IMG/VR virus record: IMGVR_UViG_3300042389_001027
Span: 64,619 to 128,618 of that record
DNA: 64,000 nt
Strand: one strand, 5' to 3'
From: a virus
The notes beneath the pieces are model-generated. The model was not told the DNA's origin and searched no databases. It was given only the letters and a program-made list of their open reading frames with translations. Made by a program: the position numbers and the translations under genes. This document shows positions 29,615-54,448 of the stretch, in pieces (within the stretch, counting starts at the first letter, position 1; each line of letters starts with the position of its first letter).

Positions 29615-29635
29615 TGTGGATAAGCCTGTGGATAA
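29615..29635. promoter_or_regulatory. Pair of perfect DnaA boxes
   Basis: TGTGGATAA at 29615 and 29627. Confidence 0.75.
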
Positions 29636-29809
29636 CTTGGACACCATAAATACATACGCATACACATGAACGCACGGCTATACGCCACCGTCGCTACTTG
29701 TAAGCACACACACAAGCACACGCTCGCGCGCGCGTAAGCCCCGTGGGCGCATCACCAGATGCGGGACTCCCCATGCCCGCTTCCGCAGCGGGGCTCGTGG
29801 GGAAGATGG

Positions 29810-30007
29810 TTAGTCAATGACCACCCATCTGTCGCCCGCTTCTGCGATAAGTCCGAGTTGTGAGCCATTGTCCCACTTCACGAAAACAGTTCCGAAGTCG
29901 TCAATGAAATCAACATTCCCTTCGTCGCCTTGTCGTAGAAGTGTGTATGCGTCATTCGTGTACTGGAGTCGCACACGCTTTCCGAGAAGATACGAAAGAT
30001 GTTTCAT
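29810..30007 (-). CDS. DUF4314-like protein
   Basis: G.RVRL....D.Y..L..G.EG.V.FIDD.GTV.V.WDNGS.LGL. Confidence 0.85.
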   Translation of the reverse strand: MKHLSYLLGKRVRLQYTNDAYTLLRQGDEGNVDFIDDFGTVFVKWDNGSQLGLIAEAGDRWVVID

Positions 30008-30258
30008 TTGTTTGCCCAATACTCCTCGTGAGATAACCACAGTTTGCCGTTGTCTTGCCAACGCTTCGTGAGCATGAAAACAATCTCACGGAACTCTGAA
30101 CGGGTAACTTCCCAATCCAATAGGTTCTCATCAAACTGATTGTTCTCAAACTCAAGAATGATTGTGGCAATCGCTTCATGCCCACTCAATGTTCCGAGTG
30201 AGTAGTAATGCTCGTCAATCACATTCATTATTTCTTCGTATTTGTTTGTTAGTGTCAT
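30004..30258 (-). CDS. Hypothetical protein
   Basis: GAGG RBS; coupled. Confidence 0.65.
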   Translation of the reverse strand: MTLTNKYEEIMNVIDEHYYSLGTLSGHEAIATIILEFENNQFDENLLDWEVTRSEFREIVFMLTKRWQDNGKLWLSHEEYWANK

Positions 30259-30372
30259 GCCACTTCCTCGTCGTCGGGGGGCGCACAGTCGTAACAGACT
30301 CGCCCGAATGATGACCACACTTCTGAAGTGTCGTCGTGTGTGTTTTGACCGCATTGGTTACAGGTGAGAGTC

Positions 30373-30612
30373 TCAGTAGTCATCTAGGGTGTCTCCGTTT
30401 TGGTCTTGGAAGATGAGGTCTCTTGCTCGTGCGTTACGCATCATGTCAAGTGTTTCGTTCTCTATGTAGAGAATGACATCATCAAGTGTGAAGTTCATTT
30501 CTTCGCCGTTGAGAATACGGTTATCTTCTTTGAGTGTTTGGATAACTTCATCAACGCCGTATGTGGAAACCCACATCACATTTATGCGTTCGGGCATTAC
30601 TTCTAGTTCCAT
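30373..30612 (-). CDS. Hypothetical protein
   Basis: CTACTAGAAAGGA leader. Confidence 0.75.
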   Translation of the reverse strand: MELEVMPERINVMWVSTYGVDEVIQTLKEDNRILNGEEMNFTLDDVILYIENETLDMMRNARARDLIFQDQNGDTLDDY

Positions 30613-30640
30613 CTATGTGTTCCTTTCTAGTAGTTACAGC

Positions 30641-30669
30641 AACACCCCTCAGTATAAGTGAGGGGTGTT
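30641..30669. promoter_or_regulatory. Palindromic ACACCCC element flanking a -10 box
   Basis: AACACCCCTCA-GTATAAG-TGAGGGGTGTT with TATACT (minus strand) in the middle. Confidence 0.6.
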
Positions 30670-30676
30670 ATAGGGA

Positions 30677-30919
30677 TTAGCCCTCGTCTGCGTAGAGAGT
30701 TGCTTCGTCGTAATACGAGTAGTCGTAGTCCTGAAGATGACCAATCGCTTCCTCAAGAGAGTTTGCCTCAATGAGGTTTGAGTAATCCAAGTGTGGAGAT
30801 GCTGGAGTTCTTGTGGCAGAGACACGGAATAGAGTTCCGCCTAACTCTCGCACCTCTAGGTTGGGGAAGAAACTTCCCGTTCCTGTCCAGATTGCGTATT
30901 CTTGTAGTTCGTTTGTCAT
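30677..30919 (-). CDS. Hypothetical protein
   Basis: 80 aa; AAGGA RBS. Confidence 0.6.
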   Translation of the reverse strand: MTNELQEYAIWTGTGSFFPNLEVRELGGTLFRVSATRTPASPHLDYSNLIEANSLEEAIGHLQDYDYSYYDEATLYADEG

Positions 30920-31049
30920 TAGTTTCTTTTTCCTTGCCCCTTTCCAGAGCGTAGTAGTTGTTCTTATCTTCAGTATAACAGGTTATGTTAGATAAAACAA
31001 CCTGTCAGCGGAGAAACCACTCCCCGTGAGGAGTGGTCACCCTGAGTGG

Positions 31050-31565
31050 TCAGTACCAACAAATGAGCCCGTCTGCGTGTTCCGCCGCCCACTTGAGATA
31101 CCACGACGCATACTTGAGGTCTGCCGTGATGTCCTCTCCGCCCATGCGGTAAACACCATCTTCCTCGTCGCACTCGTCAAACGCCTCGTCAATGACTTGG
31201 GCAAGAGTGAGACAAGAGCCCTTTGACTTCTCTGTCCCATCTTCGCTATCGCCATAGAACGAGAAGTCATCACTATCGCCGTATCCGATTGCTTCCAAGA
31301 GGTAGTTGCCGTACTTGCCTCTGTACCAACAGTCAGTACCGAACATTCCATAGACAGGACTGCCGAGTGCTTCCTTGTCTTGCTTATTCAGTTCATTGAC
31401 ATACGGGCAACCGCCACACGCTTGCGTAGCCTGACAGTCAATGACCATCATGGTTGAGCCGTCATCTTCCGTGAGTGCCACGCCGTCTTTGTTGAGTCGT
31501 GGAGTCATCACTACAGTTCCCTGAGCCTTACAGGGGTACTGCTTCGGAATGTTGTCTAGTCCCAT
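31050..31565 (-). CDS. Hypothetical protein (MGLD-start family)
   Basis: GAAAGGA RBS and upstream promoter. Confidence 0.75.
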   Translation of the reverse strand: MGLDNIPKQYPCKAQGTVVMTPRLNKDGVALTEDDGSTMMVIDCQATQACGGCPYVNELNKQDKEALGSPVYGMFGTDCWYRGKYGNYLLEAIGYGDSDDFSFYGDSEDGTEKSKGSCLTLAQVIDEAFDECDEEDGVYRMGGEDITADLKYASWYLKWAAEHADGLICWY

Positions 31566-31596
31566 CACTTTCCTTTCGTTTAGGTTTATACAGCAC

Positions 31597-31625
31597 AGTA
31601 TAACAAGGGGGTGTCATACTGTCAA
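31597..31625 (-). promoter_or_regulatory. Sigma70-type promoter with ACACCCC spacer motif
   Basis: TTGACA-17-TATACT. Confidence 0.85.
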
Positions 31626-31632
31626 ACTCTGC

Positions 31633-31944
31633 TCAGATTGCGAACAGAGCCCTCAGGTAGTCAGGTGCGTCGTGGTTCTCGCCGTCATACACGCCCTCAG
31701 GGGAGAACGCACCAACGACGACGACATTCCCGACAAGGTGACGCTGAAACAAGATGCTCGCCGTGAGGTTCGCCTCAAGTCCCCAAATCAAACCCTCGTC
31801 ATTGACATAGCCAACGAAGTCGTCTGCCCGAACGCAGTCAATGTAGCCACCGACTGACTCTTGGAGAAACCTGAGCGAGTCTTGCTCAGGAATGTCCACA
31901 ACCTTCGGGCGGTCATCTGTCGGGATAAGGATTGCCTTTGTCAT
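31633..31944 (-). CDS. DUF3846-like protein
   Basis: LQESVGGYID.V.....YVNDEG....L..N..A...LVG.VV. Confidence 0.85.
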   Translation of the reverse strand: MTKAILIPTDDRPKVVDIPEQDSLRFLQESVGGYIDCVRADDFVGYVNDEGLIWGLEANLTASILFQRHLVGNVVVVGAFSPEGVYDGENHDAPDYLRALFAI

Positions 31945-31979
31945 GTTTGTACCTTTCTAGTAGTTACAGCGTGAGTAGG

Positions 31980-32378
31980 TCACGCCACCTTTGCGGTAGC
32001 GTCACCTTCCTCAACATTGTCATTCAGGTCATACACACGGAACTGCGTGTATGGGGTGGACTTGGTGACCGCTTCTGCGACATCTGCCTTGATGAGTCCA
32101 AGTTCTACTGCCGACTGAAACTTCTTACCGTCAATCTCGGTCTTAGTGACCTTCTTGAGCGTCGCACCGTTCACCAACTCGGTGAGGGTCTTGAGGTTGT
32201 ATGAGCGACGGTTAGCCGTGATGAGCATGACCTTTTCGTTGCCCACAATGACGGACTCCGTGCCGTTCTTGGCAAGGGCTTCCTTCAGGATTTCCTCTGC
32301 CTGCGCCTTTGCCTGCTTTGCGACTTCCAATGCTCGCTCTGCCTCAAGGAACATCTGACCTGCTTGTAATGTATTCAT
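31980..32378 (-). CDS. Hypothetical protein
   Basis: 132 aa; AAGGAG RBS. Confidence 0.8.
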   Translation of the reverse strand: MNTLQAGQMFLEAERALEVAKQAKAQAEEILKEALAKNGTESVIVGNEKVMLITANRRSYNLKTLTELVNGATLKKVTKTEIDGKKFQSAVELGLIKADVAEAVTKSTPYTQFRVYDLNDNVEEGDATAKVA

Positions 32379-32828
32379 TTCGCTACTCCTTTTAGTAGTT
32401 AGGTTTATGTGATTGAGTTTATCAGAGGGGTGTTACTTTCGCAACCTTTATTTCTGACTCACTCGGTATTTCTTATTTCCCACTTTATCAGAGGGGTGTA
32501 ACACAGTTCCCTGTAGCCCTCACCATCTATAACGAATGGCGAACCTCAAAGTGTGCGCTCATCTTATCTAGGGGGTGTGACACGGTTATCCGTACACACA
32601 TAGAACGAACAGAGCCAGCCAAAGTGTGCGCTCAATCCTAAATAAATCTTTCCAGCATCTCAACCCCCGCTTTCGGCTACCGTCGCTACTTGTAGCGCAT
32701 CTGGCATAACGCTGTGCGTTATACACGCACCAGCCCCGCATAACGCGTCGCGTTATACGCACGAGCCCCGCATCAGAAGATGCGCAGCGGGGCTTCTGGC
32801 AACTTTGTGGGAAAGTGGGAAAGTGGGC

Positions 32829-32864
32829 AAAAGAAAAACCCCCGCCCGTTTCTGAGCGAGGGTT
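32829..32864 (-). terminator. Intrinsic terminator
   Basis: GC stem with an A-tract on the plus strand. Confidence 0.75.
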
Positions 32865-32888
32865 CTTCGGTTGGATTTGTCGGGAATG

Positions 32889-33257
32889 TCACGACGGGGT
32901 GACGGTCATGCTTCCGCCAGTTGGTGCGTCGTGGTGATAAAGAACGCACTTGAGTGAGTCGCCCTCAACTGTGTATCGGAGTCGCCACTCGGTTCTGTCG
33001 GGAGTGATTGCCCGCAAAAGTTCTTCGGGAGTCCGTGCGGAGAATGTTCCGTCAATCGTTCCGTACCACACGGGGAAACCCGTAATGCGGAAACCCTGAT
33101 TGTGTTCCACGAACAATGCTTCGGTATCAAAACCGAACTGCTCTACTTGGTCACTCCAACAATCTCCCCAACATTCGGGGGCTTCATTCCACTCGCCCGC
33201 ATCTTCGTCAAAAGTTACACACGCACAAGTGTTTTGTATCTCGGTCATTGTTTCCAT
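32889..33257 (-). CDS. Hypothetical protein
   Basis: TACTAGAAAGGA leader; HHDAPTG motif. Confidence 0.75.
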   Translation of the reverse strand: METMTEIQNTCACVTFDEDAGEWNEAPECWGDCWSDQVEQFGFDTEALFVEHNQGFRITGFPVWYGTIDGTFSARTPEELLRAITPDRTEWRLRYTVEGDSLKCVLYHHDAPTGGSMTVTPS

Positions 33258-33292
33258 GATTGTCCTTTCTAGTAATGACAGCGGGGGAGTCG

Positions 33293-33745
33293 TCAGACTC
33301 CGATACCCGCATGACGCTTCGCTTCTTCCCATGTGTGACACGCAAGGTGCTTCAGGGTCTCTGTGTTGTTCTCGCCACTCTCAACCGTGTACACGCTCAC
33401 GCCGTTCCTGCGCATGACATAGACGAACTGCGCCCATGAGTATGCGCCAGTTTCTTCCGTGTACCACGCTTCGTCGGAGTCCTTGTCAATGTCGTCGTGA
33501 ACAATGCCGTAGCCGACACGAATGTTCTTCTCATCTCTGAACTCGTCGGTGTCGCCTTGCTCGTGGTCAATAACTGACCATGACGCATTGTCGTTGATGA
33601 GTGTCGTGACTACTTGTGTAATCCCGTCACGCTCTACAAGTGCGCCGAGTACGCCAACCATTCGTTCAGGGTAGTTATCCCAATGAGCGTAACGCCCACG
33701 CCAACCCTGCGCCCGTTCTACTGCGATGATTGCTCTAGTTGCCAT
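33293..33745 (-). CDS. Conserved phage hypothetical protein (MATR...Y.HWD.YP family)
   Basis: MATRAII...YAHWDNYPE..G..L. Confidence 0.8.
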   Translation of the reverse strand: MATRAIIAVERAQGWRGRYAHWDNYPERMVGVLGALVERDGITQVVTTLINDNASWSVIDHEQGDTDEFRDEKNIRVGYGIVHDDIDKDSDEAWYTEETGAYSWAQFVYVMRRNGVSVYTVESGENNTETLKHLACHTWEEAKRHAGIGV

Positions 33746-33819
33746 TGTGTTTATTCCTTTTCTCTAGTAGGTATTGCCCATGATACACACGGGGTGTGAC
33801 ACGGTACAGCGACGCAAGG

Positions 33820-33972
33820 TCATGGGTTCCAACGAAACCCACGACACTCACGCTTGTTGCTGACACGCTTCTTGTTCGGTATGCGTTGCGCTTTCAGAAT
33901 GTTCCTGTCTGCGAACGCCTGTCGGTCTTGGTCACTCCAACCACGACTAGGGCTAGGTCTATTAGTTGCCAT
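33820..33972 (-). CDS. Small basic hypothetical protein
   Basis: 50 aa, R/K-rich; AAGGA RBS. Confidence 0.55.
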   Translation of the reverse strand: MATNRPSPSRGWSDQDRQAFADRNILKAQRIPNKKRVSNKRECRGFRWNP

Positions 33973-33974
33973 GT

Positions 33975-34421
33975 TCAGTTTCCTTCCGTATCCATGATGT
34001 GGCGAGTCTCGCCGTGACATTTGTGGGTTGTCTTGCGAACACACTCCGCCATGCTCTGCGAGTCAATGACGAACTTCTTGTTACACTCGTGGCACTTCGC
34101 CGTGTATGAACGCTGACCCTTTGCCCATTGGTATGGGTGGATTGGCGTGTAGCCCTTGAGTCGCTCGTCAGGGAAACAAGTGATTGCTTCGTCACACTTC
34201 ACACACACGACAACCTTGACCATGTAGGTGACTCCGCCGAACACGATGGGCTCAATGTTGGAGTAACCCTTTTTGTTGTATCCGCACTTGGTACAGATAC
34301 GGTCATGGTTGGTCATGTCTGCCGAAAGTGTGGACACTTCCTTGTTGGCGATTTTCTGAACTACAGCAACTGGAATGTTTTTGTTGTTCGCTTGCTTTAC
34401 GATGTGGGCGGTGAGTTTCAT
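33975..34421 (-). CDS. DUF4258-like protein with Zn ribbons (paralogue 1)
   Basis: MKLTAHI..QA....IP; three CxxC pairs. Confidence 0.7.
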   Translation of the reverse strand: MKLTAHIVKQANNKNIPVAVVQKIANKEVSTLSADMTNHDRICTKCGYNKKGYSNIEPIVFGGVTYMVKVVVCVKCDEAITCFPDERLKGYTPIHPYQWAKGQRSYTAKCHECNKKFVIDSQSMAECVRKTTHKCHGETRHIMDTEGN

Positions 34422-34585
34422 TTCTTTTTACCTTTCTAGTAAGTTGTAATCACTCTATCACTACGGTGTAACACTAGCAACCTTATCGGATAGATTTATT
34501 TATTTATTTTGTCTTGTACTTTCTATAACGAACGGTGACATGAAAAGTGTGCGCCACTACTGAAAGTTTTTCAGAAAGATTTTTC

Positions 34586-34613
34586 CGAACAAATGTTCCC
34601 GAACAAGTGTTCG
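34586..34613. promoter_or_regulatory. Two tandem LexA boxes
   Basis: CGAACAAATGTTCC and CGAACAAGTGTTCG. Confidence 0.75.
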
Positions 34614-34667
34614 CACGGGCTTTCGGCTACCGTCGCTACTTGTAGAGACTTCCGATAAACTCGTCGC

Positions 34668-34874
34668 ATGATTGTTACTTGTGAGTTCTGCGGATTTCAG
34701 ATTGACACGGGCAGACACGCCCACTCGGTGAAAGTAACGGGCTGGGTAAAGACGAAACAAGGCAAACCTGGCACCACCATTACACGGGCATCAGCCCCGA
34801 TGGGTTATGCGTGCCAGACCTGTCTGGAGTCCCGCGACGGGCGCGGCGATGCGGGGCTCGCGACGCTCTTCTGA
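34668..34874 (+). CDS. Small Zn-finger protein (leaderless)
   Basis: CEFCG...ACQTC; TAAACT-N6-ATG. Confidence 0.6.
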   Translation: MIVTCEFCGFQIDTGRHAHSVKVTGWVKTKQGKPGTTITRASAPMGYACQTCLESRDGRGDAGLATLF

Positions 34875-34896
34875 TGCGGGCATAAACGCGGGCATC

Positions 34897-34926
34897 AAAA
34901 AACCCGCCCCCAACGCGGAGGGCGGG
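34897..34926 (-). terminator. Intrinsic terminator
   Basis: CCCGCCC/GGGCGGG stem plus A6. Confidence 0.8.
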
Positions 34927-34947
34927 CTGATTGAGTTCTTCGCGGAA

Positions 34948-35148
34948 TCAGAGTTGTTCGGAAACTGTACGAATCTGAATGAATCTGAAGTGCTTACGGA
35001 ACTTATTGGCTTTGGCTTCTGCTTGAGCCTTGCCGTGAACTCCGTCAAAGATGACCCACTCGCATGGGAGGAGTCCGAACTCTCCCGAGAACTCGGGGTC
35101 ATCTCTCGTGATGGCTGTATGAGCCAAGACTATGTATGTCGGGTACAT
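34948..35148 (-). CDS. Hypothetical protein
   Basis: CTACTAGAAAGGA leader. Confidence 0.7.
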   Translation of the reverse strand: MYPTYIVLAHTAITRDDPEFSGEFGLLPCEWVIFDGVHGKAQAEAKANKFRKHFRFIQIRTVSEQL

Positions 35149-35333
35149 ATCTATCCTTTCTAGTAGTTGCTTATCACTATAACGAAAGGGTGTTACATAG
35201 TTGTGCGCTAACCGCCAAACTTTTTCTTTTCTTTTGAGCGCACACTTTTGACCACTCTTATCGTTACTGTATTACACCCCTTAGTTATAGTGGTGAGTAT
35301 TCCAGTAACTACTAGAAAGAAAGGAAAAACCAA

Positions 35334-35504
35334 ATGAGTCAGAAAGTCACCTCAATCCGAGTCTCGGAACAAAAGAGTGAAACCAACGGCGGAGTTGTTT
35401 ACTTCGTCACTTGGAACAACGGAACGACAATCCGTATGGAACTCGCACCTGACATGGCAGAACATCTGTCATGGCACTACGGCGTAGCAATCACCGCCCG
35501 CTAA
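35334..35504 (+). CDS. Small hypothetical protein (56 aa, not in the ORF track)
   Basis: CTACTAGAAAGAAAGGA leader; MSQKVTSIRV...ITAR; followed by a terminator. Confidence 0.75.
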   Translation: MSQKVTSIRVSEQKSETNGGVVYFVTWNNGTTIRMELAPDMAEHLSWHYGVAITAR

Positions 35505-35533
35505 TCCAGCCAAATCTCAACCGACTAGCAGAG

Positions 35534-35572
35534 AGCCCTCTCCCCAGAAATGGGGCGGGGGCTTTTTGTTTT
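35534..35572 (+). terminator. Intrinsic terminator
   Basis: AGCCCTCTCCCC...GGGGCGGGGGCT plus T-tract. Confidence 0.8.
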
Positions 35573-35753
35573 CCCCGCTATACGCCACCGTCGCTACTTG
35601 CTGTTAGCGAAAACGCTAACACTTTCCCAGAAGATGAGCGCACGAGTCCCGTGGGTCGGCGGCGCGGCGGGGCTACTGGGTTGATGTCGCTGGTTCTGGG
35701 CGGATTCATTTCTGGTTTCGGGCAAAAAAAAATCCACAACCCGCATCTTGGGC

Positions 35754-35875
35754 TGTGGATAATGTTGTGGATAAAGTTATTCACAGGCTGTGGATTTCGT
35801 TGTGGAAATCGCTTGCTTGCCTGTGGATACCCGTACAGCACTTATCCACAGGAGACACCTGCCCCCTGTGGATAA
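35754..35875. promoter_or_regulatory. DnaA-box cluster (4 perfect, about 4 degenerate)
   Basis: TGTGGATAA at 35754, 35766, 35867; TTATCCACA at 35842; TTATTCACA at 35777. Confidence 0.8.
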
Positions 35876-35893
35876 AACCAAACTCCCGAGAGT

Positions 35894-36172
35894 TCAGTCC
35901 TCGCACTCGCAATCTTCGTGAGCCTCGTAGCACCAACCGCACTCGTCGCTGTAGTCGCTGTCCTCGTCGCTTCCGAAGTCAATCCTGACCCACTTGGCGA
36001 TGGTGGCGAGAACATTGTCGTAGTCGCCTGAGGTGGCTTCCTGACGGAACTCGCTGATGATGTCACGGGCAACGCCCGACCGCCTGAGAGCGTCGCTCAC
36101 AGAGCCGATGAGAGAAAACGCATTCCCATCTACCCCAATGAGGTTCACTCCGATGTTCGGATACTTGACCAT
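35894..36172 (-). CDS. Conserved phage hypothetical protein
   Basis: V.L.G.DGNAFS.IG.V..ALRR.G...EA.SGDYD..L. Confidence 0.8.
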   Translation of the reverse strand: MVKYPNIGVNLIGVDGNAFSLIGSVSDALRRSGVARDIISEFRQEATSGDYDNVLATIAKWVRIDFGSDEDSDYSDECGWCYEAHEDCECED

Positions 36173-36382
36173 TACCTATCTCCTTTTCTATTTCTAGTAG
36201 TTGCCTTCATTGTACTGAAGGGGTGTGGCAGAGTTATTTCACCCTCCCGAGAGTTCGCTTCTCCATTGCCGATTCTCACGCCGACGCAAGAGACCGTTGT
36301 GGGTCTTTCGCCCGTGACGCTTCAGGGTGCGACAACACCCGTACGGGCATTGCCTCTCTGCTCGCTTGTTGTGGAGCATTGC

Positions 36383-36829
36383 TCACTTCTCCTTCATGAT
36401 GTGTCGGGTCTTGCCCTTACAGGTGTGCGTAGTGTCTCGCTTACATTGTGCCAAGTCCATTGACTGAATCATGAACCTACGACCGCAATCGTGACACTTA
36501 GCCGAGTACGACCGCATGCCCTTATCCCATTGGTCTCTACGAATGGGTGTATTGCCCTCTAGGGCTTCGTCTGCGTAGACCGTGATGGCTTCGTCGCACT
36601 TGACGCATACAACGACCTTCACGCCGTATTCCTTGCCCTGAAACACAATGGGCGAGTAGGTGCGCCACTCTTGCTTGATAGCACCGCACCAACGGCAACG
36701 GCAGTCTCGCTTCGTGATGTCCTGCTGTGCCTTGTGAATGCCGACCTGCTGGAGAACGACCTTCTCCACTACGGGAATCGGGATTCGCTTCTGTTCGGCT
36801 TGGTTCTTGATGTGCTGTGTCATTCGCAT
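36383..36829 (-). CDS. DUF4258-like protein with Zn ribbons (paralogue 2)
   Basis: Aligns over its length with 33975-34421 (VKVVVCVKCDEAIT identical). Confidence 0.75.
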   Translation of the reverse strand: MRMTQHIKNQAEQKRIPIPVVEKVVLQQVGIHKAQQDITKRDCRCRWCGAIKQEWRTYSPIVFQGKEYGVKVVVCVKCDEAITVYADEALEGNTPIRRDQWDKGMRSYSAKCHDCGRRFMIQSMDLAQCKRDTTHTCKGKTRHIMKEK

Positions 36830-36935
36830 TTGCTTACTCCTTCTAGTAGGTATGCCCTCACTATAACGGAGGGGTGTAATACATAAACGTATCGGAGGCA
36901 CAAAAGTGTGCGTGTCATTCGTCACATCTCTTGAC

Positions 36936-37020
36936 AGAACAAGTGTTCGCCTCCCCGACCGAACGAGTGTTCGCCGAACGAGTGTTCCCCGAACAGGTGT
37001 TCGTACCGAACAAGTGTTCG
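36936..37020. promoter_or_regulatory. Array of five LexA boxes
   Basis: GAAC-N4-GTTC at 36936, 36960, 36975, 36990, 37007. Confidence 0.85.
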
Positions 37021-37061
37021 CCCGTGAGACAAAGAGACCCAAAGTGTCTCACCGTCTCGCC

Positions 37062-37184
37062 TGTGGATAAACCTGTGGAAAACTATGTTGCTGACTACAA
37101 GTAAGTTATCCACACCCTGTGGAAAACCTTATCCCCACCCTGTGGACAAACTTATCCACACGCTGTGAATAAACCTGTGGAAAA
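37062..37184. promoter_or_regulatory. Array of about nine DnaA boxes
   Basis: Perfect boxes at 37062, 37106, 37152; TTWTNCACA or 1-mismatch boxes at 37074, 37118, 37129, 37141, 37164, 37176. Confidence 0.85.
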
Positions 37185-37358
37185 CTTTTCCGCCAAAAAA
37201 CTTGACAAACCAAAAACTTTATGCGAATCCGAAACTAGAAACCAGATGCCCGCCCCGTAGCCCCGTGTGCTACGCGCTGGCATAGCAGTCCCGTGGGTGT
37301 AAACCCCGTGCGGGGCTCGTGAGGTGAGTGGTCGCCCAACTCGTGGATTCGGGGAATA

Positions 37359-37398
37359 AAAAATGGGTCGCCACCCCGTATGTAGGGAAACGACCCAT
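37359..37398 (-). terminator. Intrinsic terminator
   Basis: ATGGGTCG...CGACCCAT stem plus A-tract. Confidence 0.7.
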
Positions 37399-37417
37399 GA
37401 AGGTAACCCGAAGAATC

Positions 37418-37639
37418 TCAGTCAATCAGGAACTCAGGGCGAGCGAGGGCAAGGGCTTCGCCAATCTCAATCGCCGTAAATGCCTGAGGGTTATCCAAGT
37501 CTCTGACCGTCACGAAGTTAGCCCCAACTGTCGGGTCATTGGCTATCTCCGCAAGGTTGCCGTACGCCTGACAGACCGCATCTAAGTGGGATTCGCAATC
37601 CTCGTAGACCATCTCCCAAGTCACTATGTACCTAGCCAT
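37418..37639 (-). CDS. Hypothetical protein
   Basis: AGGAG RBS. Confidence 0.7.
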   Translation of the reverse strand: MARYIVTWEMVYEDCESHLDAVCQAYGNLAEIANDPTVGANFVTVRDLDNPQAFTAIEIGEALALARPEFLID

Positions 37640-37750
37640 TTGTGTTGTCTCCTATCTGCCCCTGAGGGCGGTTGTAAGGGGCTGGAAAGCCCAAAGCCCC
37701 CGTGTCACCCAATGAGGCAACACGGAGGCGTATGTGAGGCGTGGAAGGGC

Positions 37751-38266
37751 TTACGCCAACTTCCTCGCACACACTGGTCCGATACCCCGTGCGACTGATT
37801 CGGGGTCGTTCAGGAATCGCCCGCAGATGACGCAGTGACCGCACTCGTGTCCGAGCGCACCTGCCTGCTCAACGGTGAGCGCAACAATCGCACCCGTGCT
37901 GATTCGGTTGGCGAGGGTGACCATACCGCCACGCTCAAATGTCCACGAAGTGGCGAGAGCCTGCTTGGTCATTGCGTAGGTGTGTCCACCGCCGTTACGG
38001 GCAGGGCGCACGAACCATACGGTTGAGTGAGCCGATTCCCAGTAGAACCCAACGGGGGGAACTGGCAACGCCTGAGCACCATTGCGTTGGACTTGGCGAG
38101 CCTGAGCCTTGTTGCGCATGGAAACCGCAGAGCGAATCTGAGCCTCCGTGAGCGTACGGTGACGACGGTAATACTTGGCGAGATTCTGAGCGAAGTCAGA
38201 CCAAGTCTGATTGCCGAGCCAAACTGCGAGGTCTGCTACCTCGGAAGCGTCTAGTTGAGTGGACAT
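37751..38266 (-). CDS. DUF6011-like Zn-finger protein
   Basis: C-terminal CVICGRFLNDPESVARGIGPVCARK. Confidence 0.85.
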   Translation of the reverse strand: MSTQLDASEVADLAVWLGNQTWSDFAQNLAKYYRRHRTLTEAQIRSAVSMRNKAQARQVQRNGAQALPVPPVGFYWESAHSTVWFVRPARNGGGHTYAMTKQALATSWTFERGGMVTLANRISTGAIVALTVEQAGALGHECGHCVICGRFLNDPESVARGIGPVCARKLA

Positions 38267-38305
38267 TGCAACCCCTTTCATGGGTCTAGTAGGTTTACGA
38301 AATCA

Positions 38306-38334
38306 ACTATACAACGGGGGTGTTACATAGTCAA
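38306..38334 (-). promoter_or_regulatory. Sigma70-type promoter with ACACCCC spacer motif
   Basis: TTGACT-17-TATAGT. Confidence 0.8.
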
Positions 38335-38617
38335 GGATTATCTGAAAAAAGTGTAAATAAACTTCGCCAGACATTTGCCAGCCCAACCCAACCGCTGTCC
38401 CAAACCGAACTCACCAAACCCCCACAGCCCCCGCTTTCCGCCACCGTCGCCCTTGTAGCGCAATCCCACACGCACCACCCGCAGGGGCGCACGCACCCCC
38501 ATAGCCCCGCAGCGGCGCATAACGCGACACGTTACGTCACAGCCCCGCTTGACAGAGTCGGCGGCGGGACTCGCGGGGTCGGGCGAGCAGAATCTTGGTC
38601 AAAATCTTGGGTAAAGA

Positions 38618-38642: not shown

Positions 38643-38661
38643 GATTCTGTGGTTGTGAGGT

Positions 38662-44744: not shown

Positions 44745-44746
44745 GT

Positions 44747-46535: not shown

Positions 46536-46545
46536 CCAGCACCAA

Positions 46546-46608: not shown

Positions 46609-46636
46609 ATGTCGGCGACTGTAACATTACTCAATC

Positions 46637-47101: not shown

Positions 47102-47160
47102 TGTGCTCAACGACATCTGGGTCGTAGAGAGTCCCGCACGCATCACACTTTACGAGATGC

Positions 47161-47403: not shown

Positions 47404-47487
47404 TTGTTTTTTCTATCACACAATGCTAGGCTGGCGTCGCACCTTCGGGACTTCCGAGGGTCAACTCACACAAGGAGAATCCGTACT

Positions 47488-47952: not shown

Positions 47953-47995
47953 TAACCGTCAAACCGCATCTGTGAGTGCGGTACGGTAACAATAA

Positions 47996-48032
47996 GAAAA
48001 CCCCACCCGTCTGATGGCGAGTGGGGTTTCTT
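47996..48032. terminator. Bidirectional terminator
   Basis: GAAAACCCCAC...GTGGGGTTTC between convergent genes. Confidence 0.8.
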
Positions 48033-48053
48033 GCTGTTTAGGGTTGGCGTTGA

Positions 48054-48755: not shown

Positions 48756-48838
48756 TTATTGTCACCTCCTCGGTGCTCTAGTAGTTCTATAACCATAAGT
48801 ATAGCAAGGGGGTGTAACATTTGCAACTCCTAGATTTC

Positions 48839-48852
48839 AGAACATTTGTTCG
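48839..48852. promoter_or_regulatory. LexA box in a divergent promoter region
   Basis: AGAAC-ATTT-GTTCG immediately before the -10 of the gene at 48867. Confidence 0.65.
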
Positions 48853-48866
48853 TATAACATCATCAT

Positions 48867-49271
48867 GTGACACGGATTTCAGACCAACTACCTGACGACA
48901 TTATTTACCTGATTCGGAACATCAGTGAGGGAAACATCACAGATGCCGAAATGGAAGGTATTCTCCCAGATTTCTATGTGCGGGTAGCCGTCGTAGATGA
49001 GGGCAAAAACCTCCCCGTAAGCCCAGAAACGCACGACAAGGCTGCGGCTTGGATTGAGAAGCAGCGGGGCTTCCAGAAGCGTGCATCGGAGGCTTGGGCT
49101 GTCCTGCAGCGGGCGGAACCCATAGATGCGGTCGCCGTCGGCAAGGGAGGGAATCTTCCCGAATGGTTTGGCTACACATGGACATCAAACTTGATGTTTG
49201 ATTGGGCAACAAACCTGCATCTTGCTGTTTTTGATGCGGAAAAATACATTTCCGAACGAGGATTGCGTTAA
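48867..49271 (+). CDS. Hypothetical protein (leaderless)
   Basis: TAACAT-N6-GTG. Confidence 0.7.
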   Translation: MTRISDQLPDDIIYLIRNISEGNITDAEMEGILPDFYVRVAVVDEGKNLPVSPETHDKAAAWIEKQRGFQKRASEAWAVLQRAEPIDAVAVGKGGNLPEWFGYTWTSNLMFDWATNLHLAVFDAEKYISERGLR

Positions 49272-49272
49272 G

Positions 49273-50430
49273 TCAGAACAGTTGAGGCTGATGGTCGGGT
49301 ATTTCTGCGATTCGCTTCTCCGCCAACTTCGCATACTCGGGATTTAACTCAAACCCGATGCCATCCCTGCCCAACCGCTTTGCGACCGCCAGCGTTGTCC
49401 CAGAGCCCGCAAACGGGTCAAGTACGACACACGGGGCTACTGGGGCATCGCATGAGCACGTTGCCTCCCAGCCGACGGTGAACGTTGGGACTGTGTGTTT
49501 GAGGGTTGAGCCATCTTCCAGACCAGTTCGTCGCATCCCTTGTTCGTTGATGTCGTACTGCCCAGCCCCCTGTGCTGACCATGCCTGAAGGATTGGTTCG
49601 CCCTTCTCTGTCAGTCGGACATACGGATTCCCGCACTTGGAACAGCAACCTTTCTCAGATGTGCCTGCAAGAATGCACGGCTCAACGAGGTCGTGAGGGA
49701 AAGTTGCGAAATGCGCCCCTTTGTACGGCTTCGTGTTGATTGTCCAGACGGACCTGCGGTTCTTCATCGCTCCAACGGTGTAGTTCGCTGAAGACGAGTT
49801 CGCCTCTGTCCCTCGCCGCGAGTCCCGTCGTGCGCCACGGTTGTCGCCCGCCCAGATGGCTGGCTCCTTGATGGCTTCCGCATCGTAGAAGTACCTGGGT
49901 TTCTTTGCGAGGAGGAAGATGTATTCGTGTGATGTGGTGCAACGGTCAGTCACGCTTGACGGCATCGCATTCGGTTTGTTCCAAATGATGTCTTGTCGCA
50001 AATACCAGCCAGCATCTTGGAGCGCAAATGCTACTCGCCATGGGATGCCCATGAGGTCTTTTGGTTTTAAACCGTCGGGTGTGGACTTATGGAGTGTCCC
50101 AATGATTGTTCCAAGTGAAGTTGCCTGTTTGGAGTTCGGGTCAACGTTCGCTGAGCCGTCTGCGTTCCGCCCTTTGCCTGAGCCCGCATAACTGTCTCCG
50201 AGATTCAGCCAGAGAGTCCCGTCGTCACGAAGTACACGATGTATCTCTTTGAATACCTCAAGCATCGCAGCGACGAACTCTTGAGGTGATGGCTCCTGTC
50301 CGATTTGTCCTTCGTGTCCGTAATCACGCAACCCGAAGTACGGGGGTGATGTGACGACGCAGTGTACGGATTTGTCAGGTAGATGCGAAAGTCCTGTTCG
50401 GCAATCGCTAACAATCAGTTGTGTGGTCAA
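49273..50430 (-). CDS. DNA N4-cytosine/N6-adenine methyltransferase (beta class)
   Basis: VTSPPY near the N-terminus; HFATFP; [10 protein letters not shown] near the C-terminus. Confidence 0.93.
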
Positions 50431-50436
50431 GTTTCT

Positions 50437-50775
50437 CTATTTTCTAGTGAACCACTTCAGTACTCGTGCCCGAAGCGAAGGATTAACAATGTCGTTTGCC
50501 TTCACCACATTAGCGGTTTTTTCAATGATTTCCTTGATTCCTTCAGGCACGCTTGCGGTGACTTCAACTTTGATGTCGGCTTTCGCAGTGGATGTCTTCG
50601 GCGACTGTGTTTTCACGACTGTCTTCGCTGCGGGACGCTTACGCGGCTCAGCACTCTTCTGCGGCACAACTTTCTTCGCGGATGCCTTCTTCGCACCCGC
50701 TTTCTTCGCAGCGGTTTTCTTCGCAACTGCTTTCTTCGCGGCTGGTTTCTTTTTGGGTTGCTTGCTTTCGTTCAT
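50437..50775 (-). CDS. Histone H1-like Lys/Ala-rich protein
   Basis: PAAKKAVAKKTAAKKAGAKKASAKK repeats. Confidence 0.7.
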   Translation of the reverse strand: MNESKQPKKKPAAKKAVAKKTAAKKAGAKKASAKKVVPQKSAEPRKRPAAKTVVKTQSPKTSTAKADIKVEVTASVPEGIKEIIEKTANVVKANDIVNPSLRARVLKWFTRK

Positions 50776-50850
50776 AACACGCAACAGTAGTACGAACTTC
50801 GTTTTCGTAAGAGCACTTTCGGTCACATTTTATGAGATAGGGTTACATTC

Positions 50851-51468
50851 ATGGATGCGTATCCAACAACTCTTGACAAAGTCGCCCTGGTAGTAGAAGC
50901 AGCGAAAGTCGCAAAATCAGATGCGGTAAAACTGAACGGAATCGGGGAGGACATCAACCTTAACTTGTTCGGGTGGCGGGACTCCTCGCTGGTCGTCATC
51001 GCTCAGATGCTTGACAGCAGTCAGATTCCAAAAGACGAACGGTTCGCCAAAGTCGTGAATGCGCTTTGTATTATCAGACAAGGTTGGCAAGTTGATGGAT
51101 TTACGATGGTTGCGGAAGCGTTTTGCTCACTTTTGCCGTCGGACACGAGGGGCAAAGACCTTGCGGCGCAGTTCGCCGAGAAGGATTCGCCTGTGATGGA
51201 GTGCCTCTCGTTCACGCACGTATCGCACAAAGATGCGCTCTTCGTAACAGTCCCGTACACGTGCGTTCCGCCTCGCACGGTCATATACAAGACCCCGCTG
51301 AAGTACTCTGGTTACGAGGGTGTGCTCCGTGATAGAAAGTATCCCGCTGCGATGGGGAAGGCTCTTGACCTCCCGATTAGCGAGTCGGTGGTTGAGGATG
51401 GCGATGTGTTTCATGCCGTTCTCGCTGAGGGGTTGGCTGACGAAGGGTTTGATGTTCATTATCTTTAG
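50851..51468 (+). CDS. Hypothetical protein (leaderless)
   Basis: TAGGGT-N7-ATG; 205 aa. Confidence 0.75.
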   Translation: MDAYPTTLDKVALVVEAAKVAKSDAVKLNGIGEDINLNLFGWRDSSLVVIAQMLDSSQIPKDERFAKVVNALCIIRQGWQVDGFTMVAEAFCSLLPSDTRGKDLAAQFAEKDSPVMECLSFTHVSHKDALFVTVPYTCVPPRTVIYKTPLKYSGYEGVLRDRKYPAAMGKALDLPISESVVEDGDVFHAVLAEGLADEGFDVHYL

Positions 51469-51472
51469 TTTC

Positions 51473-51502
51473 TTGACATAACACATCTGTTATGTGTATA
51501 AT
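51473..51502 (+). promoter_or_regulatory. Consensus promoter overlapped by a palindromic operator
   Basis: TTGACA-18-TATAAT; ACATAACA-CATC-TGTTATGT inverted repeat. Confidence 0.85.
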
Positions 51503-51507
51503 GTAAA

Positions 51508-51578
51508 AAGCAGGCGTCTCCTTTCCGCCTGTGCCAAGACCCCCTCCGACTTCATGTGGTGGGGGTTTTTGGTTTTTT
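51508..51578 (+). ncRNA. ~70-nt small RNA with an anti-Shine-Dalgarno loop
   Basis: Own promoter; CAGGCG-UCUCCUUUC-CGCCUG hairpin; ACCCCC/GGGGGU terminator plus U-tract; no ORF. Confidence 0.7.
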
Positions 51579-51622
51579 GACAATGCTTGACTTCATGAAC
51601 TAGATTGGGTAAGTTTAGATAC

Positions 51623-51919
51623 ATGAACTACTACACCAATAAACAGCACCCAAACTACTACTACAGCATTCGCACTTTCGTAAGGGTCACCTTTTGGGGA
51701 GGTGTGGCAGTCGGTCTCTTCGTGGGGGCAGGCGTACTCGGAGAAAAACTGGCAGACGACCCACGACCCAAATGTGATGTGACAGTCAATGTGGATTTCA
51801 CATGGGTCAATAACGGCACAACATGGGTTGACCTCACAATGTGCCAAAACCCGAACAACGGGATTTTCCTTGAGCCCGACGGAACATGGCGTTGGTACGA
51901 CCCAGAGTTGGATAACTGA
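51623..51919 (+). CDS. Single-TM hypothetical protein (leaderless)
   Basis: TTGACT...TAAGTT-N7-ATG; one hydrophobic helix. Confidence 0.7.
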   Translation: MNYYTNKQHPNYYYSIRTFVRVTFWGGVAVGLFVGAGVLGEKLADDPRPKCDVTVNVDFTWVNNGTTWVDLTMCQNPNNGIFLEPDGTWRWYDPELDN

Positions 51920-51933
51920 GTAGACTGCGAGAC

Positions 51934-52266
51934 ATGACAATGGACATGGACACATACCAGCAACAAGCATCCACCACAGCGAAGTACCCCGAAAGCACAG
52001 GCTTGATTTACTGCGTGCTCGGGCTCGCATCCGAAGCAGGTGAAGTCGCTGGCAAACTGAAGAAAGCCATCCGTGACGAGAACGGCGTCCTGTCGGAGTC
52101 CCGCAAGGAAGACTTGCTCGCGGAACTCGGCGATGTGCTCTGGTACTGCGCGATGACCGCGATGGAACTTGATGCGACGCTCTCCTCGGTCGCTGAGGCA
52201 AATCTCAACAAACTGTTTGACCGCAAAGACCGTGGTGTCATCGGGGGCGATGGGGACAAGCGGTGA
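51934..52266 (+). CDS. mazG: MazG-like nucleotide pyrophosphohydrolase
   Basis: LGLASEAGEVA.K.KK...ELGDVLWY...N..KL..R. Confidence 0.9.
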   Translation: MTMDMDTYQQQASTTAKYPESTGLIYCVLGLASEAGEVAGKLKKAIRDENGVLSESRKEDLLAELGDVLWYCAMTAMELDATLSSVAEANLNKLFDRKDRGVIGGDGDKR

Positions 52267-52323
52267 AAGCCTTCATTTCCGTCATTGCCGTGCTTGGCAT
52301 GGTTTTGCTGATTGGAATGCGAA

Positions 52324-52584
52324 ATGACTGACACAACTTGGACTTGGTTGCTGTTCGGAATGGAAATCATTGGTGTCACAGGAATGTGGTACGCAGGGAA
52401 AAAGATGTGGTGGGGCTGGCTCATCGTCATCCTCCACACCATCCCGTGGTTCATTTACGCCGTCACCCACAACAAGCCCGGATTCGTCGCAATGTCATTG
52501 ATGTGGTGGGCTGTTCACTGGCGGAACATGATTCGCTGGCGCAGGGAAGAGCGTTGGAGCAAGGCGGGGCTTGTGAGGGGATGA
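52324..52584 (+). CDS. Small PnuC-like membrane protein
   Basis: G.W..G.K.WWGW......W..YA...GF...RN...W pattern. Confidence 0.65.
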   Translation: MTDTTWTWLLFGMEIIGVTGMWYAGKKMWWGWLIVILHTIPWFIYAVTHNKPGFVAMSLMWWAVHWRNMIRWRREERWSKAGLVRG

Positions 52585-52588
52585 ACCC

Positions 52589-53098
52589 TCAGTCGCCCTC
52601 CTTCCACAACTTCTCCAACTCGTCGCGCTCCTCCGACTCCCGCTGGACGCGCTCCATGATTGCGTCAAACACACCACCCAACCCGTCGGGGTTATCCAAC
52701 TCCTCGCCCATGAGCCGCTGGATTTCCATGTGTGCGTCAAGTTCCTCGTCGGTCATAGCGTTCAGTTCACGCTCGTATGCGACTTGCTGACCTGCGAACA
52801 GGAACATCTCCAACTGTAGGTCGTCAATCAACTTGAACTCCGAAATCATGTTGTTCAGATAAACCGCTGACGGAATGCGTTCTCCCGTACGAATGCTCTG
52901 TGCGATGTTGTGCCAAAACAGTTCCGTCTTGTACTCGTACAGTCTCACTAGGTCATCGGGGATGAAGTCATCCTGCCAATCCCATCCGTCAAGGTCAAAG
53001 TCCTTAGCCGATGGCACTCGGTCAGGGAAACGCTTCATGGATTCTGCCCGTAGAGCCCCATGACCGTCGTCGCCTTCATTACTATCTATGTCAAACAT
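52589..53098 (-). CDS. Acidic hypothetical protein
   Basis: 169 aa; GGAAGG RBS. Confidence 0.7.
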   Translation of the reverse strand: MFDIDSNEGDDGHGALRAESMKRFPDRVPSAKDFDLDGWDWQDDFIPDDLVRLYEYKTELFWHNIAQSIRTGERIPSAVYLNNMISEFKLIDDLQLEMFLFAGQQVAYERELNAMTDEELDAHMEIQRLMGEELDNPDGLGGVFDAIMERVQRESEERDELEKLWKEGD

Positions 53099-53206
53099 TG
53101 TCTATACCTTCCTTGTTTATGCCCCCTCCGTGGGGGTCTATGTCTATAACGAACAAAGGTGGGGAAAGTGTGCGCTCCCCATCGGCTTGTAATACTAAAA
53201 TGTTGT

Positions 53207-53389
53207 ATGGGAAAGAAAAAGAAATCATCAGGTTCGCAATCCACAGGTCGCACCCGTGTGAACCCCTTGACTGGTCAAGTGGAAACTGTGAGTGGGACAA
53301 AGGCTGGCAAACGACGGTCGTACCTCCCTGCTGGACACCCCCTCAGGACACACGACATTCAGGGCGCATCAAAGAAGAAAGACAAGTAG
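53207..53389 (+). CDS. Small basic protein (leaderless)
   Basis: TAAAAT-N5-ATG; MGKKKKSSG...KKKDK. Confidence 0.6.
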   Translation: MGKKKKSSGSQSTGRTRVNPLTGQVETVSGTKAGKRRSYLPAGHPLRTHDIQGASKKKDK

Positions 53390-53549
53390 TCCCGCTCTCA
53401 TGATGCCCTCCTCATGGCGACCATCACCAGATAGCCGTATCGCTGTGCGCTTCGCACTCACGGGGCTTCTGGCGTTCTTCTCGTGGTTGTGCGGGGTTGT
53501 CTCGTTCGCACTTCTCTGTTGGGGTTCGTGGGTGTATTCACGCCGTCGG

Positions 53550-53714
53550 TCAGGTACATAGTTCACAGTATTCATGGGGGTCGTGGTCGCATACTTCGTA
53601 CCACACTTCCCATTCGTAATAGTCGTGGCTGTCAAGGTACTCTCGTACTTCCCTCTTAGCCTGTCGCCTGTGTTGCTTGACCTTGTGACGGTAATACAAC
53701 AGTCCTAGTATCAC
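53550..53714 (-). CDS. Small hypothetical protein (54 aa, not in the ORF track)
   Basis: Hand translation MILGLLYYRHKVKQHRRQAKREVREYLDSHDYYEWEVWYEVCDHDPHEYCELCT. Confidence 0.45.
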   Translation of the reverse strand: MILGLLYYRHKVKQHRRQAKREVREYLDSHDYYEWEVWYEVCDHDPHEYCELCT

Positions 53715-53793
53715 TTTGATACCCGTGAACTACCCGTGAGCATCTTGACGATGCGCCTGAGCGTCACTCTCCTTATCCAAGTCAAGTAGAGAT

Positions 53794-53841
53794 GTATCAC
53801 TTCGTATCTCTTTGTATCACTTTGTATCCCTTTGTATTGCT
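53794..53841. repeat. 10-bp tandem repeat x5 (GTATCNCTTY), iteron-like
   Basis: GTATCACTTC GTATCTCTTT GTATCACTTT GTATCCCTTT GTATTGCT. Confidence 0.75.
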
Positions 53842-53975
53842 GATTCCATTTATACAAACTCTTTCCTGTATTAGCAGAGGGGTCTCCTCCACTATAGACA
53901 ACATAACAGATGTGTTAGATGTTGTCAAGTGTTACGAATAAATATTTACCCGTGAGCACCCGTAAGCACTAAAGC

Positions 53976-54007
53976 AAAAAGAGGGGAGAGGTGTTACCTC
54001 CTCCCCT
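53976..54007 (-). terminator. Intrinsic terminator
   Basis: AGGGGAG...CTCCCCT stem plus A-tract. Confidence 0.7.
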
Positions 54008-54012
54008 TGCTT

Positions 54013-54291
54013 TCAGAACTTGTAGTCGGTGTAGAAGATTGGGGTCTCTGTCTCCCTCAAGGGGCGCATACCTTGACCTGTGCGGTATGTGCCGTCTTTG
54101 CGGAGTCGCACTGTCATTGTGTATCCCTCAGGGCAAGTGATTGCGATGTGTCCAACTACTGGCAACTCTGCGCCATCGTTGTAAACCTGCTCGCCTTGAC
54201 TCATCTGACGAATCGTAATCGTCTTAGCCGTCTGACGAATCACTTCCCAACATCTTGTGTCTGTCACAAGCGTTTCTGTCATGAACTTCAT
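54013..54291 (-). CDS. Hypothetical protein
   Basis: CTACTAGAAAGG leader; promoter at 54335-54363. Confidence 0.8.
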   Translation of the reverse strand: MKFMTETLVTDTRCWEVIRQTAKTITIRQMSQGEQVYNDGAELPVVGHIAITCPEGYTMTVRLRKDGTYRTGQGMRPLRETETPIFYTDYKF

Positions 54292-54334
54292 TGCTCTACC
54301 TTTCTAGTAGTTCAGGTACTTCCTGATAAATCTA

Positions 54335-54363
54335 ACTATAACAGGGGGGTGTAACATTGTCAA
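54335..54363 (-). promoter_or_regulatory. Sigma70-type promoter with TGTTACACCCC spacer motif
   Basis: TTGACA-17-TATAGT. Confidence 0.85.
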
Positions 54364-54415
54364 CCCCAAAACAAAAGAAATCCAAAAAACTTCCGAAACC
54401 CTCAAGCCCCTCCAA

Positions 54416-54448
54416 CAATCCACAACCTGTGGAAAAACCTGTGGACAA
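54416..54448. promoter_or_regulatory. Small cluster of degenerate DnaA boxes
   Basis: CAATCCACA, TGTGGAAAA, TGTGGACAA at 12-bp period. Confidence 0.55.

Follow-up and report, generated by a model that had tools for sequence, protein, structure and literature searches.

Clustered DnaA boxes and LexA-type SOS palindromes as candidate host-responsive operators in the early region of a 128.6-kb phage

The DNA analysed here is a stretch of 64,000 nt (the window), positions 64619-128618 and thus the second half of the 128,618-bp virus record IMGVR_UViG_3300042389_001027, which is rated 100% complete. Its early region carries four clusters of DnaA boxes (clusters 1 to 4), accompanied by LexA-type SOS palindromes. 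The clusters are a real and conserved feature, in presence, phasing and position alike, and we give about an even chance to the reading that they are operator modules by which host DnaA and LexA control early transcription. The unit of such a module would be the double DnaA box, a pair of 9-mers with 2-3 bp between them, which DnaA would bind here in the way it binds its regulatory targets in E. coli. Bound DnaA would raise or lower early transcription according to the active DnaA of the host, and the LexA SOS boxes present in the same regions would add DNA damage as a second input. In the phage of the window and its nearest kin, two of these units would have expanded into 9-box arrays, one located with five SOS boxes upstream of a small early cassette (znfB, g92) and the other at the terminator end of the cassette, where two inverted boxes would form the terminator hairpin. 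Early gene expression would in this manner track the replication and DNA-damage state of the host, in a phage that relies on the host replisome.

Four DnaA-box clusters and their SOS boxes

The perfect 9-mer TTATCCACA occurs nine times in the window against 0.51 expected, a number reached by none of 100 shuffles. The whole record contains the same nine copies only, and no copy of the reversed control word. All nine fall in three gene-free clusters, with starts at 29615 and 29627 (cluster 1), 35754, 35766, 35842 and 35867 (cluster 2) and 37062, 37106 and 37152 (cluster 3). A previous reading of the letters alone (the sequence-only reading) had taken them for genuine host-type DnaA boxes, and these counts agree with it. 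Cluster 1 (29615..29635, minus strand) is, as described there, a double box of two perfect copies, separated by 3 bp. Cluster 2, given as about eight boxes at 35754-35875, is real but somewhat larger, with nine boxes of at most 2 mismatches, four of them perfect, between 35730 and 35875. The count of about nine for cluster 3 (37062..37184) is exact: three boxes are perfect, six have one mismatch, and orientation mostly alternates. Any other 150-bp stretch of the genome contains at most 4 boxes, and the maximum in 50 mononucleotide shuffles is 5.

Double boxes, with the two members 2 or 3 bp apart, are present in all four clusters. The statement that spacing is mostly 2-3 bp holds for clusters 1 and 4, where all start-to-start steps are 11-12 bp, and for cluster 3 (7/8 steps), but in cluster 2 it applies to only 4 of the 8 steps. 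Cluster 4 (54416..54448) consists, as previously noted, of three degenerate boxes (2, 1 and 1 mismatches), a count which alone is not above background; its phasing is exactly 12 bp, and the same triplet is kept in the relative L118, whose neighbouring gene is 91% identical. No comparable cluster was found at 1-29 kb or 55-64 kb of the window, as had been claimed, nor in the other half of the genome. The further claim that no obvious AT-rich element adjoins the boxes is partly correct. From inside the right end of cluster 3 runs a 60-bp stretch with an A+T content of 67% (98th percentile for this genome), which hardly varies among the four related copies aligned; it is outside the 20 most AT-rich stretches of the genome. 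Context had not entered the sequence-only reading: the boxes lie at fixed distances from promoters and beside LexA-type SOS boxes. LexA is a repressor of transcription, and this context therefore points to transcription control by host factors.

Five LexA-type SOS boxes, identified by match to the palindrome core (36937..37019; starts at 36937, 36961, 36976, 36991 and 37008), abut cluster 3. Three of them have the core CGAAC-N4-GTTCG and two the shorter GAAC-N4-GTTC. By our own arithmetic about 0.1 palindromes with the exact core CGAAC-N4-GTTCG are expected in 128.6 kb; there are five, three of which are those beside cluster 3. Two more palindromes of the GAAC-N4-GTTC type (34587..34612) are located in the divergent gap between znfA and a 68-aa gene, at a site upstream of the latter where the relatives L014 and L015 have one perfect DnaA box instead. 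Another relative, L028, has two SOS palindromes adjoining two DnaA boxes. The palindromic core is identical to that of the actinobacterial LexA box, given as TCGAAC-N4-GTTCGA for M. tuberculosis (PMC3381160) and as tCGAAC-N4-GNNCGa for S. venezuelae (PMC9380542). The copies in L028 keep the outer bases of the full 16-mer, whereas those in the window lack the outer T and A and agree at the level of the core. A further difference is that the window has five copies in tandem at intervals of 15-24 bp, with the nearest promoter 75-160 nt downstream.

Clusters 2 and 3 bracket the early cassette of znfB and g92. Cluster 3 has the znfB promoter on one side and, on the other, the terminator of the leftward unit that precedes it. 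On its right, a nearly invariant A-rich flank (37185..37245, plus strand) contains TTGACA (37202-37207) 17 nt after the last box, the spacing found in promoters of relatives, followed by a poor -10 (GAATCC) and no open reading frame (ORF); conserved GC-rich hairpins and the minus-strand terminator that closes the upstream leftward unit come next (37246..37400). On its left, a conserved inverted repeat, GTGAGACA ... TGTCTCAC (37025..37053), separates the DnaA boxes from the SOS boxes. The znfB promoter belongs to the early class (36850..36890, minus strand; spacer motif at 36871-36881, -10 TATAGT). The first cassette gene, znfB (P0002; 36383..36829, minus strand), encodes a Cys-rich protein of 148 aa, and g92 (35894..36172, minus strand; PHROG 1933) a protein of 92 aa. 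Cluster 2 begins directly after the g92 stop codon, in the gap between convergent genes, and its two leftmost inverted boxes form a terminator-like hairpin followed by a T run (35722..35760, minus strand), which is kept in all four copies aligned.

The other two clusters stand at promoters. A distance of 2 nt separates the proximal box of cluster 1 from the weak -35 (GGAACT) downstream of it, in the early promoter of a 303-aa gene (promoter 29584..29612, minus strand, by sequence reading; 17-nt spacer with TGTTACACCCC, -10 TAAAGT), so placed that the two boxes are centred near -42 and -54. The gene itself (28646..29557, minus strand) has a DUF1281_C-type domain. Cluster 4 is located about 60 nt upstream of a TTGACA-N17-TATAGT promoter, also read from the sequence (54330..54365, minus strand), which carries TGTTACACCCC in its 17-nt spacer and belongs to a 92-aa gene (54013-54291).

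Comparison with the closest kin, L056 (94% identical over 34470-38352) and L058 (78-88% identical), reveals that clusters 2 and 3 are kept in place. The arrays of the three phages differ by whole 11-12-nt units, so that phase is maintained, and hardly any change is seen in the 60 nt that follow cluster 3 on its right, the TTGACA 17 nt from the last box included. In L056, an insert of about 1.1 kb (L056:3889-4977) replaces about 240 bp of the window (38352-38595) and constitutes a second full cassette, with cluster-2-type boxes and hairpin, a g92 paralog, a promoter, SOS boxes, the inverted repeat, five DnaA boxes and the invariant flank. Since the g92 paralog is again enclosed between DnaA and SOS arrays, the cassette duplicates as a unit.

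Box pairs at promoters of related phages

Relatives were gathered with the SNF2 helicase as an anchor, which yielded 41 viral loci, one locus from a metagenome-assembled genome (MAG) and 47 metagenome loci. Boxes were counted in the first 42 loci (522,276 bp), several of which are strains of one phage. These contain 55 perfect boxes against 3 reversed control words, and 16 same-strand pairs in 12-bp steps against none for the control word. Naive ORF calls include spurious ones that overlap the arrays, and a count restricted to sequence outside them was therefore abandoned. The boxes are limited to the subclade with a helicase about 55-95% identical and are absent from L034-L054; many relatives have only 2-4 box pairs, or none.

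The pairs of the relatives share a layout. Read on the TGTGGATAA strand it consists of a box, 3 nt, a second box, about 17 nt, TTGnnn, 17 nt and a -10 such as CATAAT, and after 6-7 nt more the ATG of an ORF of 43-126 aa. Each pair was scored for a TTG (+15 to +19), for a hexamer resembling a -10 (+38 to +44) and for an ATG (+45 to +57) that opens an ORF of 40 aa or more. Of the 20 distinct pairs, 15 had the complete set, as compared to 0.37% of 20,000 random places, and the double boxes are centred near -57 and -69. An ATG only 6-7 nt after the -10 marks the gene as leaderless, and leaderless messages are a habit of Actinobacteria. Judged by this geometry, the double box of the relatives is the upstream part of predicted early promoters of the sigma-A type that serve leaderless small genes. 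The idea that the pairs stand upstream of leftward genes was dropped, as they face rightward promoters, which the geometry test confirms. L015 has one box 13 nt upstream of the promoter motif seen at cluster 1, and in L020 boxes flank that motif. Taken together, a repressor whose boxes travel with the DnaA boxes, and at one matching site take the place of a DnaA box of relatives, and a fixed promoter geometry argue that the DnaA boxes act in transcription.

Early promoters of the window itself (15 sites at 23.8-54.4 kb) are also of the sigma-A type; the -35 varies, the spacer is 17 nt long and the -10 is in many cases extended. Their spacer carries a conserved element, TGTYACACCC(C), which suggests that a phage or host factor may read the spacer. 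After most of the promoters with this element a leader with CTACTAGAAAGG follows.

Several observations weigh against an operator role. In the window, promoter placement of double boxes is seen for clusters 1 and 4 and not for cluster 2, which lies between convergent genes with no recognisable promoter. The distance of 200-320 nt by which cluster 3 precedes the znfB promoter is too great for a simple operator, and the promoter-like sequence of its own right flank combines a poor -10 with the lack of an ORF. Nine boxes and five SOS boxes far exceed the need of one promoter. The stereotyped promoter geometry is a property of the relatives only; in the window just the spacing from box to TTGACA survives, and orientation and distance of the boxes differ (about -42/-54 for cluster 1 as compared to about -57/-69 in relatives). 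Moreover, the DnaA-box and SOS-box preferences of the host were assumed from other bacteria, and binding of DnaA and LexA to these sites, its effect on transcription and the sign of that effect are predictions.

DnaA is known to regulate the transcription of a small set of chromosomal genes and to assist at a few phage and plasmid origins. Phage lambda has a few weak DnaA sites, in contrast to the tens of consensus boxes at stereotyped promoter positions, together with SOS boxes, seen here. Nevertheless both phages replicate with host enzymes, and lambda uses host DnaA on early transcription near its replication genes (pR and ori-lambda; PMC8203912). DnaA acts as activator or repressor, and it is early transcription of lambda that it stimulates (PMC8203912). 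The closest counterpart of the unit itself is found in the E. coli DnaA regulon, which DnaA binds as pairs of 9-mers 2-3 bp apart, at promoters and near the consensus TTATCCACA (Stringer, Fitzgerald and Wade 2024, PMC11317965). Here, by comparison, the pairs are on phages, at many early promoters of one lineage, and have grown to 9-box arrays, and DnaA binding to them is predicted. A full-text literature search found no published description of DnaA double boxes with SOS boxes at actinophage promoters. The SOS boxes abutting cluster 3 and the fixed distance from double box to promoter are new. It appears from the sequences that a whole phage lineage made the double DnaA box a regular component of its promoters and combined it with SOS boxes. 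If true, the virus would read the initiation potential and the damage state of its host through the sensors of the host, with no regulator of its own encoded. The sites would then also be compact natural promoter parts, responsive to DnaA and LexA, for use in Actinobacteria, and would help to explain how phages above 100 kb that lack polymerase, helicase and primase gain control of host replication.

Alternative roles of the arrays

The replication genes of the phage bear on a different explanation, in which cluster 3, perhaps together with cluster 2, is an accessory origin that depends on DnaA or is activated by transcription of its flank, recruits the host replisome and is gated by the SOS boxes. 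What makes it attractive is that the phage must borrow the host replisome and that cluster 3 resembles a DnaA assembly region with an A-rich flank; we nonetheless consider it, although the strongest of the alternatives, rather unlikely. Six-frame profile searches of the whole record detected no DNA polymerase A, B or III alpha, no DnaB, no DnaG zinc ribbon and no Prim-Pol, and likewise no tyrosine integrase or serine recombinase. The sole replication candidates are a helicase-loader-like and a replication-initiator-like gene, an SSB, the SNF2 helicase and recombination genes. The nine phased boxes of cluster 3 mix perfect and imperfect sites, the flank is as conserved and A+T-rich as described above, and lambda provides the precedent of an origin activated by DnaA-stimulated transcription (PMC8203912). 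The global minimum of the cumulative GC skew is located at 39.4 kb, 2.2 kb from cluster 3; however, it coincides with the point at which early transcription diverges (about 38.9 kb). LexA is not known to act in initiation, and in L056 the supposed origin is present in duplicate.

Two comparisons speak more directly against the origin. The loader-like (PHROG 2289) and initiator-like (PHROG 16167) genes form an adjacent pair (19540..20407, minus strand), the conserved candidate replication module of the family, 9-17 kb from clusters 1-3, whose products gave no Pfam or PDB match by sequence. The pair is kept in the relatives G001-G003 and in G004, a complete 137-kb relative which also lacks DnaB, PolA and Pol III alpha. 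G004 shows no box enrichment (5 TTNTCCACA against 7 control words) and yet keeps the pair, and so the arrays are not the obligate origin of the family, nor are they present in all of its members that depend on the host in this way. The second comparison concerns the DnaA-trio rule for origins of chromosomes, by which a box (at most 2 mismatches) is followed, after a spacer of at most 16 bp, by at least 3 NAN trios (PMC8287927). Checked on both strands, the sequence to the right of cluster 3 never shows more than two consecutive NAN, in the window as in L056. Such trios occur only in L058 and in the L056 duplicate and are therefore not conserved. Both results are in line with the judgement of the sequence-only reading that four scattered clusters are unlike one classical origin. 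It may be added that the 128.6-kb genome is unusually large for full dependence on the host replisome.

The arrays could also be decoys, about 23 DnaA boxes and at least 7 SOS boxes per genome soaking up DnaA and LexA, so that re-initiation by the host would be blocked and its SOS regulon unleashed, in the manner of datA of E. coli or of the DnaA-box clusters of B. subtilis. E. coli datA is a DnaA-titrating box cluster near oriC. Array size beyond the need of one promoter, a cluster 2 without promoter, and arrays which gain and lose whole units and occur twice in L056 are all consistent with such a sponge. A precedent is given by the eight intergenic regions of stable DnaA binding in B. subtilis, thought to control the level of active initiator (PMC2533591). 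These multi-box clusters lie outside the origin and have regulatory as well as titrating roles (PMC2533591), and they share with datA a chromosomal location near oriC, whereas the present ones are on a virus and coupled to LexA boxes. A sponge does not need pairs at a fixed position relative to promoters, as found in the relatives, and the many relatives with few pairs or none would hardly suit it. Titration could equally be a side effect of regulatory sites. Hence decoys as the main function are, in our view, distinctly unlikely, and titration may be a by-product, the one that best explains the large arrays and the promoterless cluster 2.

A phage-encoded protein might bind these words in place of DnaA (or of LexA), with the Cys-rich znf proteins and g92 as candidates, given that both znf paralogs are directly downstream of palindromes and g92-family genes directly upstream of cluster-2-type arrays. 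The words, however, correspond exactly to the universal DnaA box and to the variants usual for it, in the spacing that DnaA prefers, and the six-frame search of the whole record detected no DnaA domain IV in the phage. L016-L022 have boxes with no znf or g92 homolog in the available flanks, and the palindromes of L028 are present with no znf homolog in its 18 kb of sequence; because relatives carry the sites in this way, we regard a binder encoded by the phage as very unlikely. Hardly credible, in our estimate, is an injection-stop or entry signal which catches membrane-bound DnaA, as proposed for the first-step-transfer region of T5. The sequence-only reading had preferred titration or injection, neither of which gained positive support, and its parallel with T5 stands in one respect only. 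The T5-like injection stop (iss) regions are, like the clusters here, non-coding phage DNA with several boxes, always in pairs 3 bp apart (10.1101/866236). In T5, though, eight boxes lie within inverted repeats, in the untranslated part of a terminal repeat of roughly 10 kb that enters the cell first (10.1101/866236), and the hypothesis is no more than that even for T5. Our record has no long terminal repeat: a 127-bp repeat is common to both of its ends, which we infer to be the overlap of a circular assembly and which therefore defines no first-injected end. The clusters are spread over 25 kb inside early transcription units, at promoters and terminators and tied to SOS boxes, and the relatives place their pairs at varying sites.

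Control of early transcription by DnaA and LexA thus remains the reading that we favour. A combination of roles is conceivable for the cluster 3 type of module, which would then be an auxiliary origin gated by LexA and fired by DnaA, a sink for both regulators, and duplicable as a cassette, in large freshwater actinophages free of replisome genes and wired to both host sensors; this proposal is speculative and, we think, unlikely to be right.

The phage, its likely host and other sequence features

The whole record (G000) consists of the window and L009-L012. PHROG and Pfam scans of 143 ORFs recovered the gene set of a myovirus (sheath, tube, baseplate, portal, terminase and major head protein), along with a WhiB-type regulator, an Rpf-type transglycosylase domain, DUF732 and DUF6011. 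The last four are markers of Actinobacteria and their phages. The host would be an actinobacterium, judging from WhiB, the Rpf-type domain and the leaderless promoters. The phage is uncultured, and the stretch was found in lake and river metagenomes. No likeness at the DNA level to any named phage, near or distant, was found, and the terminase shares no more than 44% identity with its counterparts in Gordonia and Methanothermobacter phages. A single scan of contigs of bacterial genomes yielded one contig (L054; SNF2 helicase 58% identical), with no host clue or prophage sign, inside a MAG labelled Poseidoniaceae archaeon; it is probably a phage contig mis-binned into this archaeal MAG. In an Rfam scan of 19-64 kb a tRNA was the sole match.

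The second znf gene, znfA (33975..34421, minus strand), encodes a Cys-rich protein of 148 aa, a paralog of znfB (52% identity). Each of the two genes is downstream of SOS-type palindromes. Neither protein matches a known family, and L015 provides their one distant homolog; a single-protein search and a search with a 3-sequence alignment gave no relatives of znfB beyond that contig. The model of g92, built from 40 homologs, reached a pLDDT (predicted local distance difference test score) of 74.5, and neither a sequence profile against PDB nor Foldseek (none below E = 1) gave a match. The 303-aa gene has relatives of 27-33% identity only, and box pairs are absent from the vicinity of 13 of the 14. 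One distant relative found through this gene, L108, has three perfect DnaA boxes within 800 bp (L108:48-800), two of them 11 bp apart.

Contigs from four riverine RNA libraries cover the genes flanking the clusters, but reveal no strand and no transcript start. Among the pieces listed none spans cluster 3, an absence that carries no weight. One contig extends from g92 to 67 nt past its stop codon, into cluster 2, and the libraries may contain DNA. At 35953 one RNA-library contig carries an insertion of 12 nt in g92, within the part for the acidic, Cys-rich tail; this is a length variant at the strain level.

The auxiliary genes of the phage (3049-7950 and 57683-58870 of the window; L009:6235-7101, L009:10558-11280 and L011:1323-3028) comprise a tryptophan-halogenase-like gene, two 2OG-Fe(II) oxygenases, a CoA-transferase III, deacetylase-like and sulfotransferase-like genes, and a PAPS-reductase-like gene adjoining a ParB-like gene. 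An ORF on the plus strand at 18080-18560 begins with a motif that by eye resembles the start of an N-terminal-nucleophile (proteasome/HslV-like) hydrolase. The same stretch has an extreme excess of A and C on the plus strand; the odd composition at 18-19 kb was ruled out as an origin, the region being coding sequence.

Two short words recur. The 9-mer ACGGTGGCG has 14 exact copies, all on the sense strand of local genes, with window positions 20603, 20957, 21352, 21721, 22083, 23106, 27024, 29683, 35583 and 38439 and, on the other strand, 4793, 16354 and 62650. It is partly intergenic and partly coding (peptide S-D-G-G-G-K/V or ...SSDGGV-stop) and also occurs in relatives. Its interpretation as a promoter was dropped, since it is also found inside coding sequence, and it may be a Chi-like or RNA-level signal. 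AG[CT]CCCG[TC] has 57 matches in the 128.6-kb genome, all in the early region (20.6-54.5 kb of the window). At 20-42 kb many of these form inverted pairs (AGCCCCG ... CGGGGCT), 25-60 nt apart, between genes, an arrangement by which they are probably U-less terminators.

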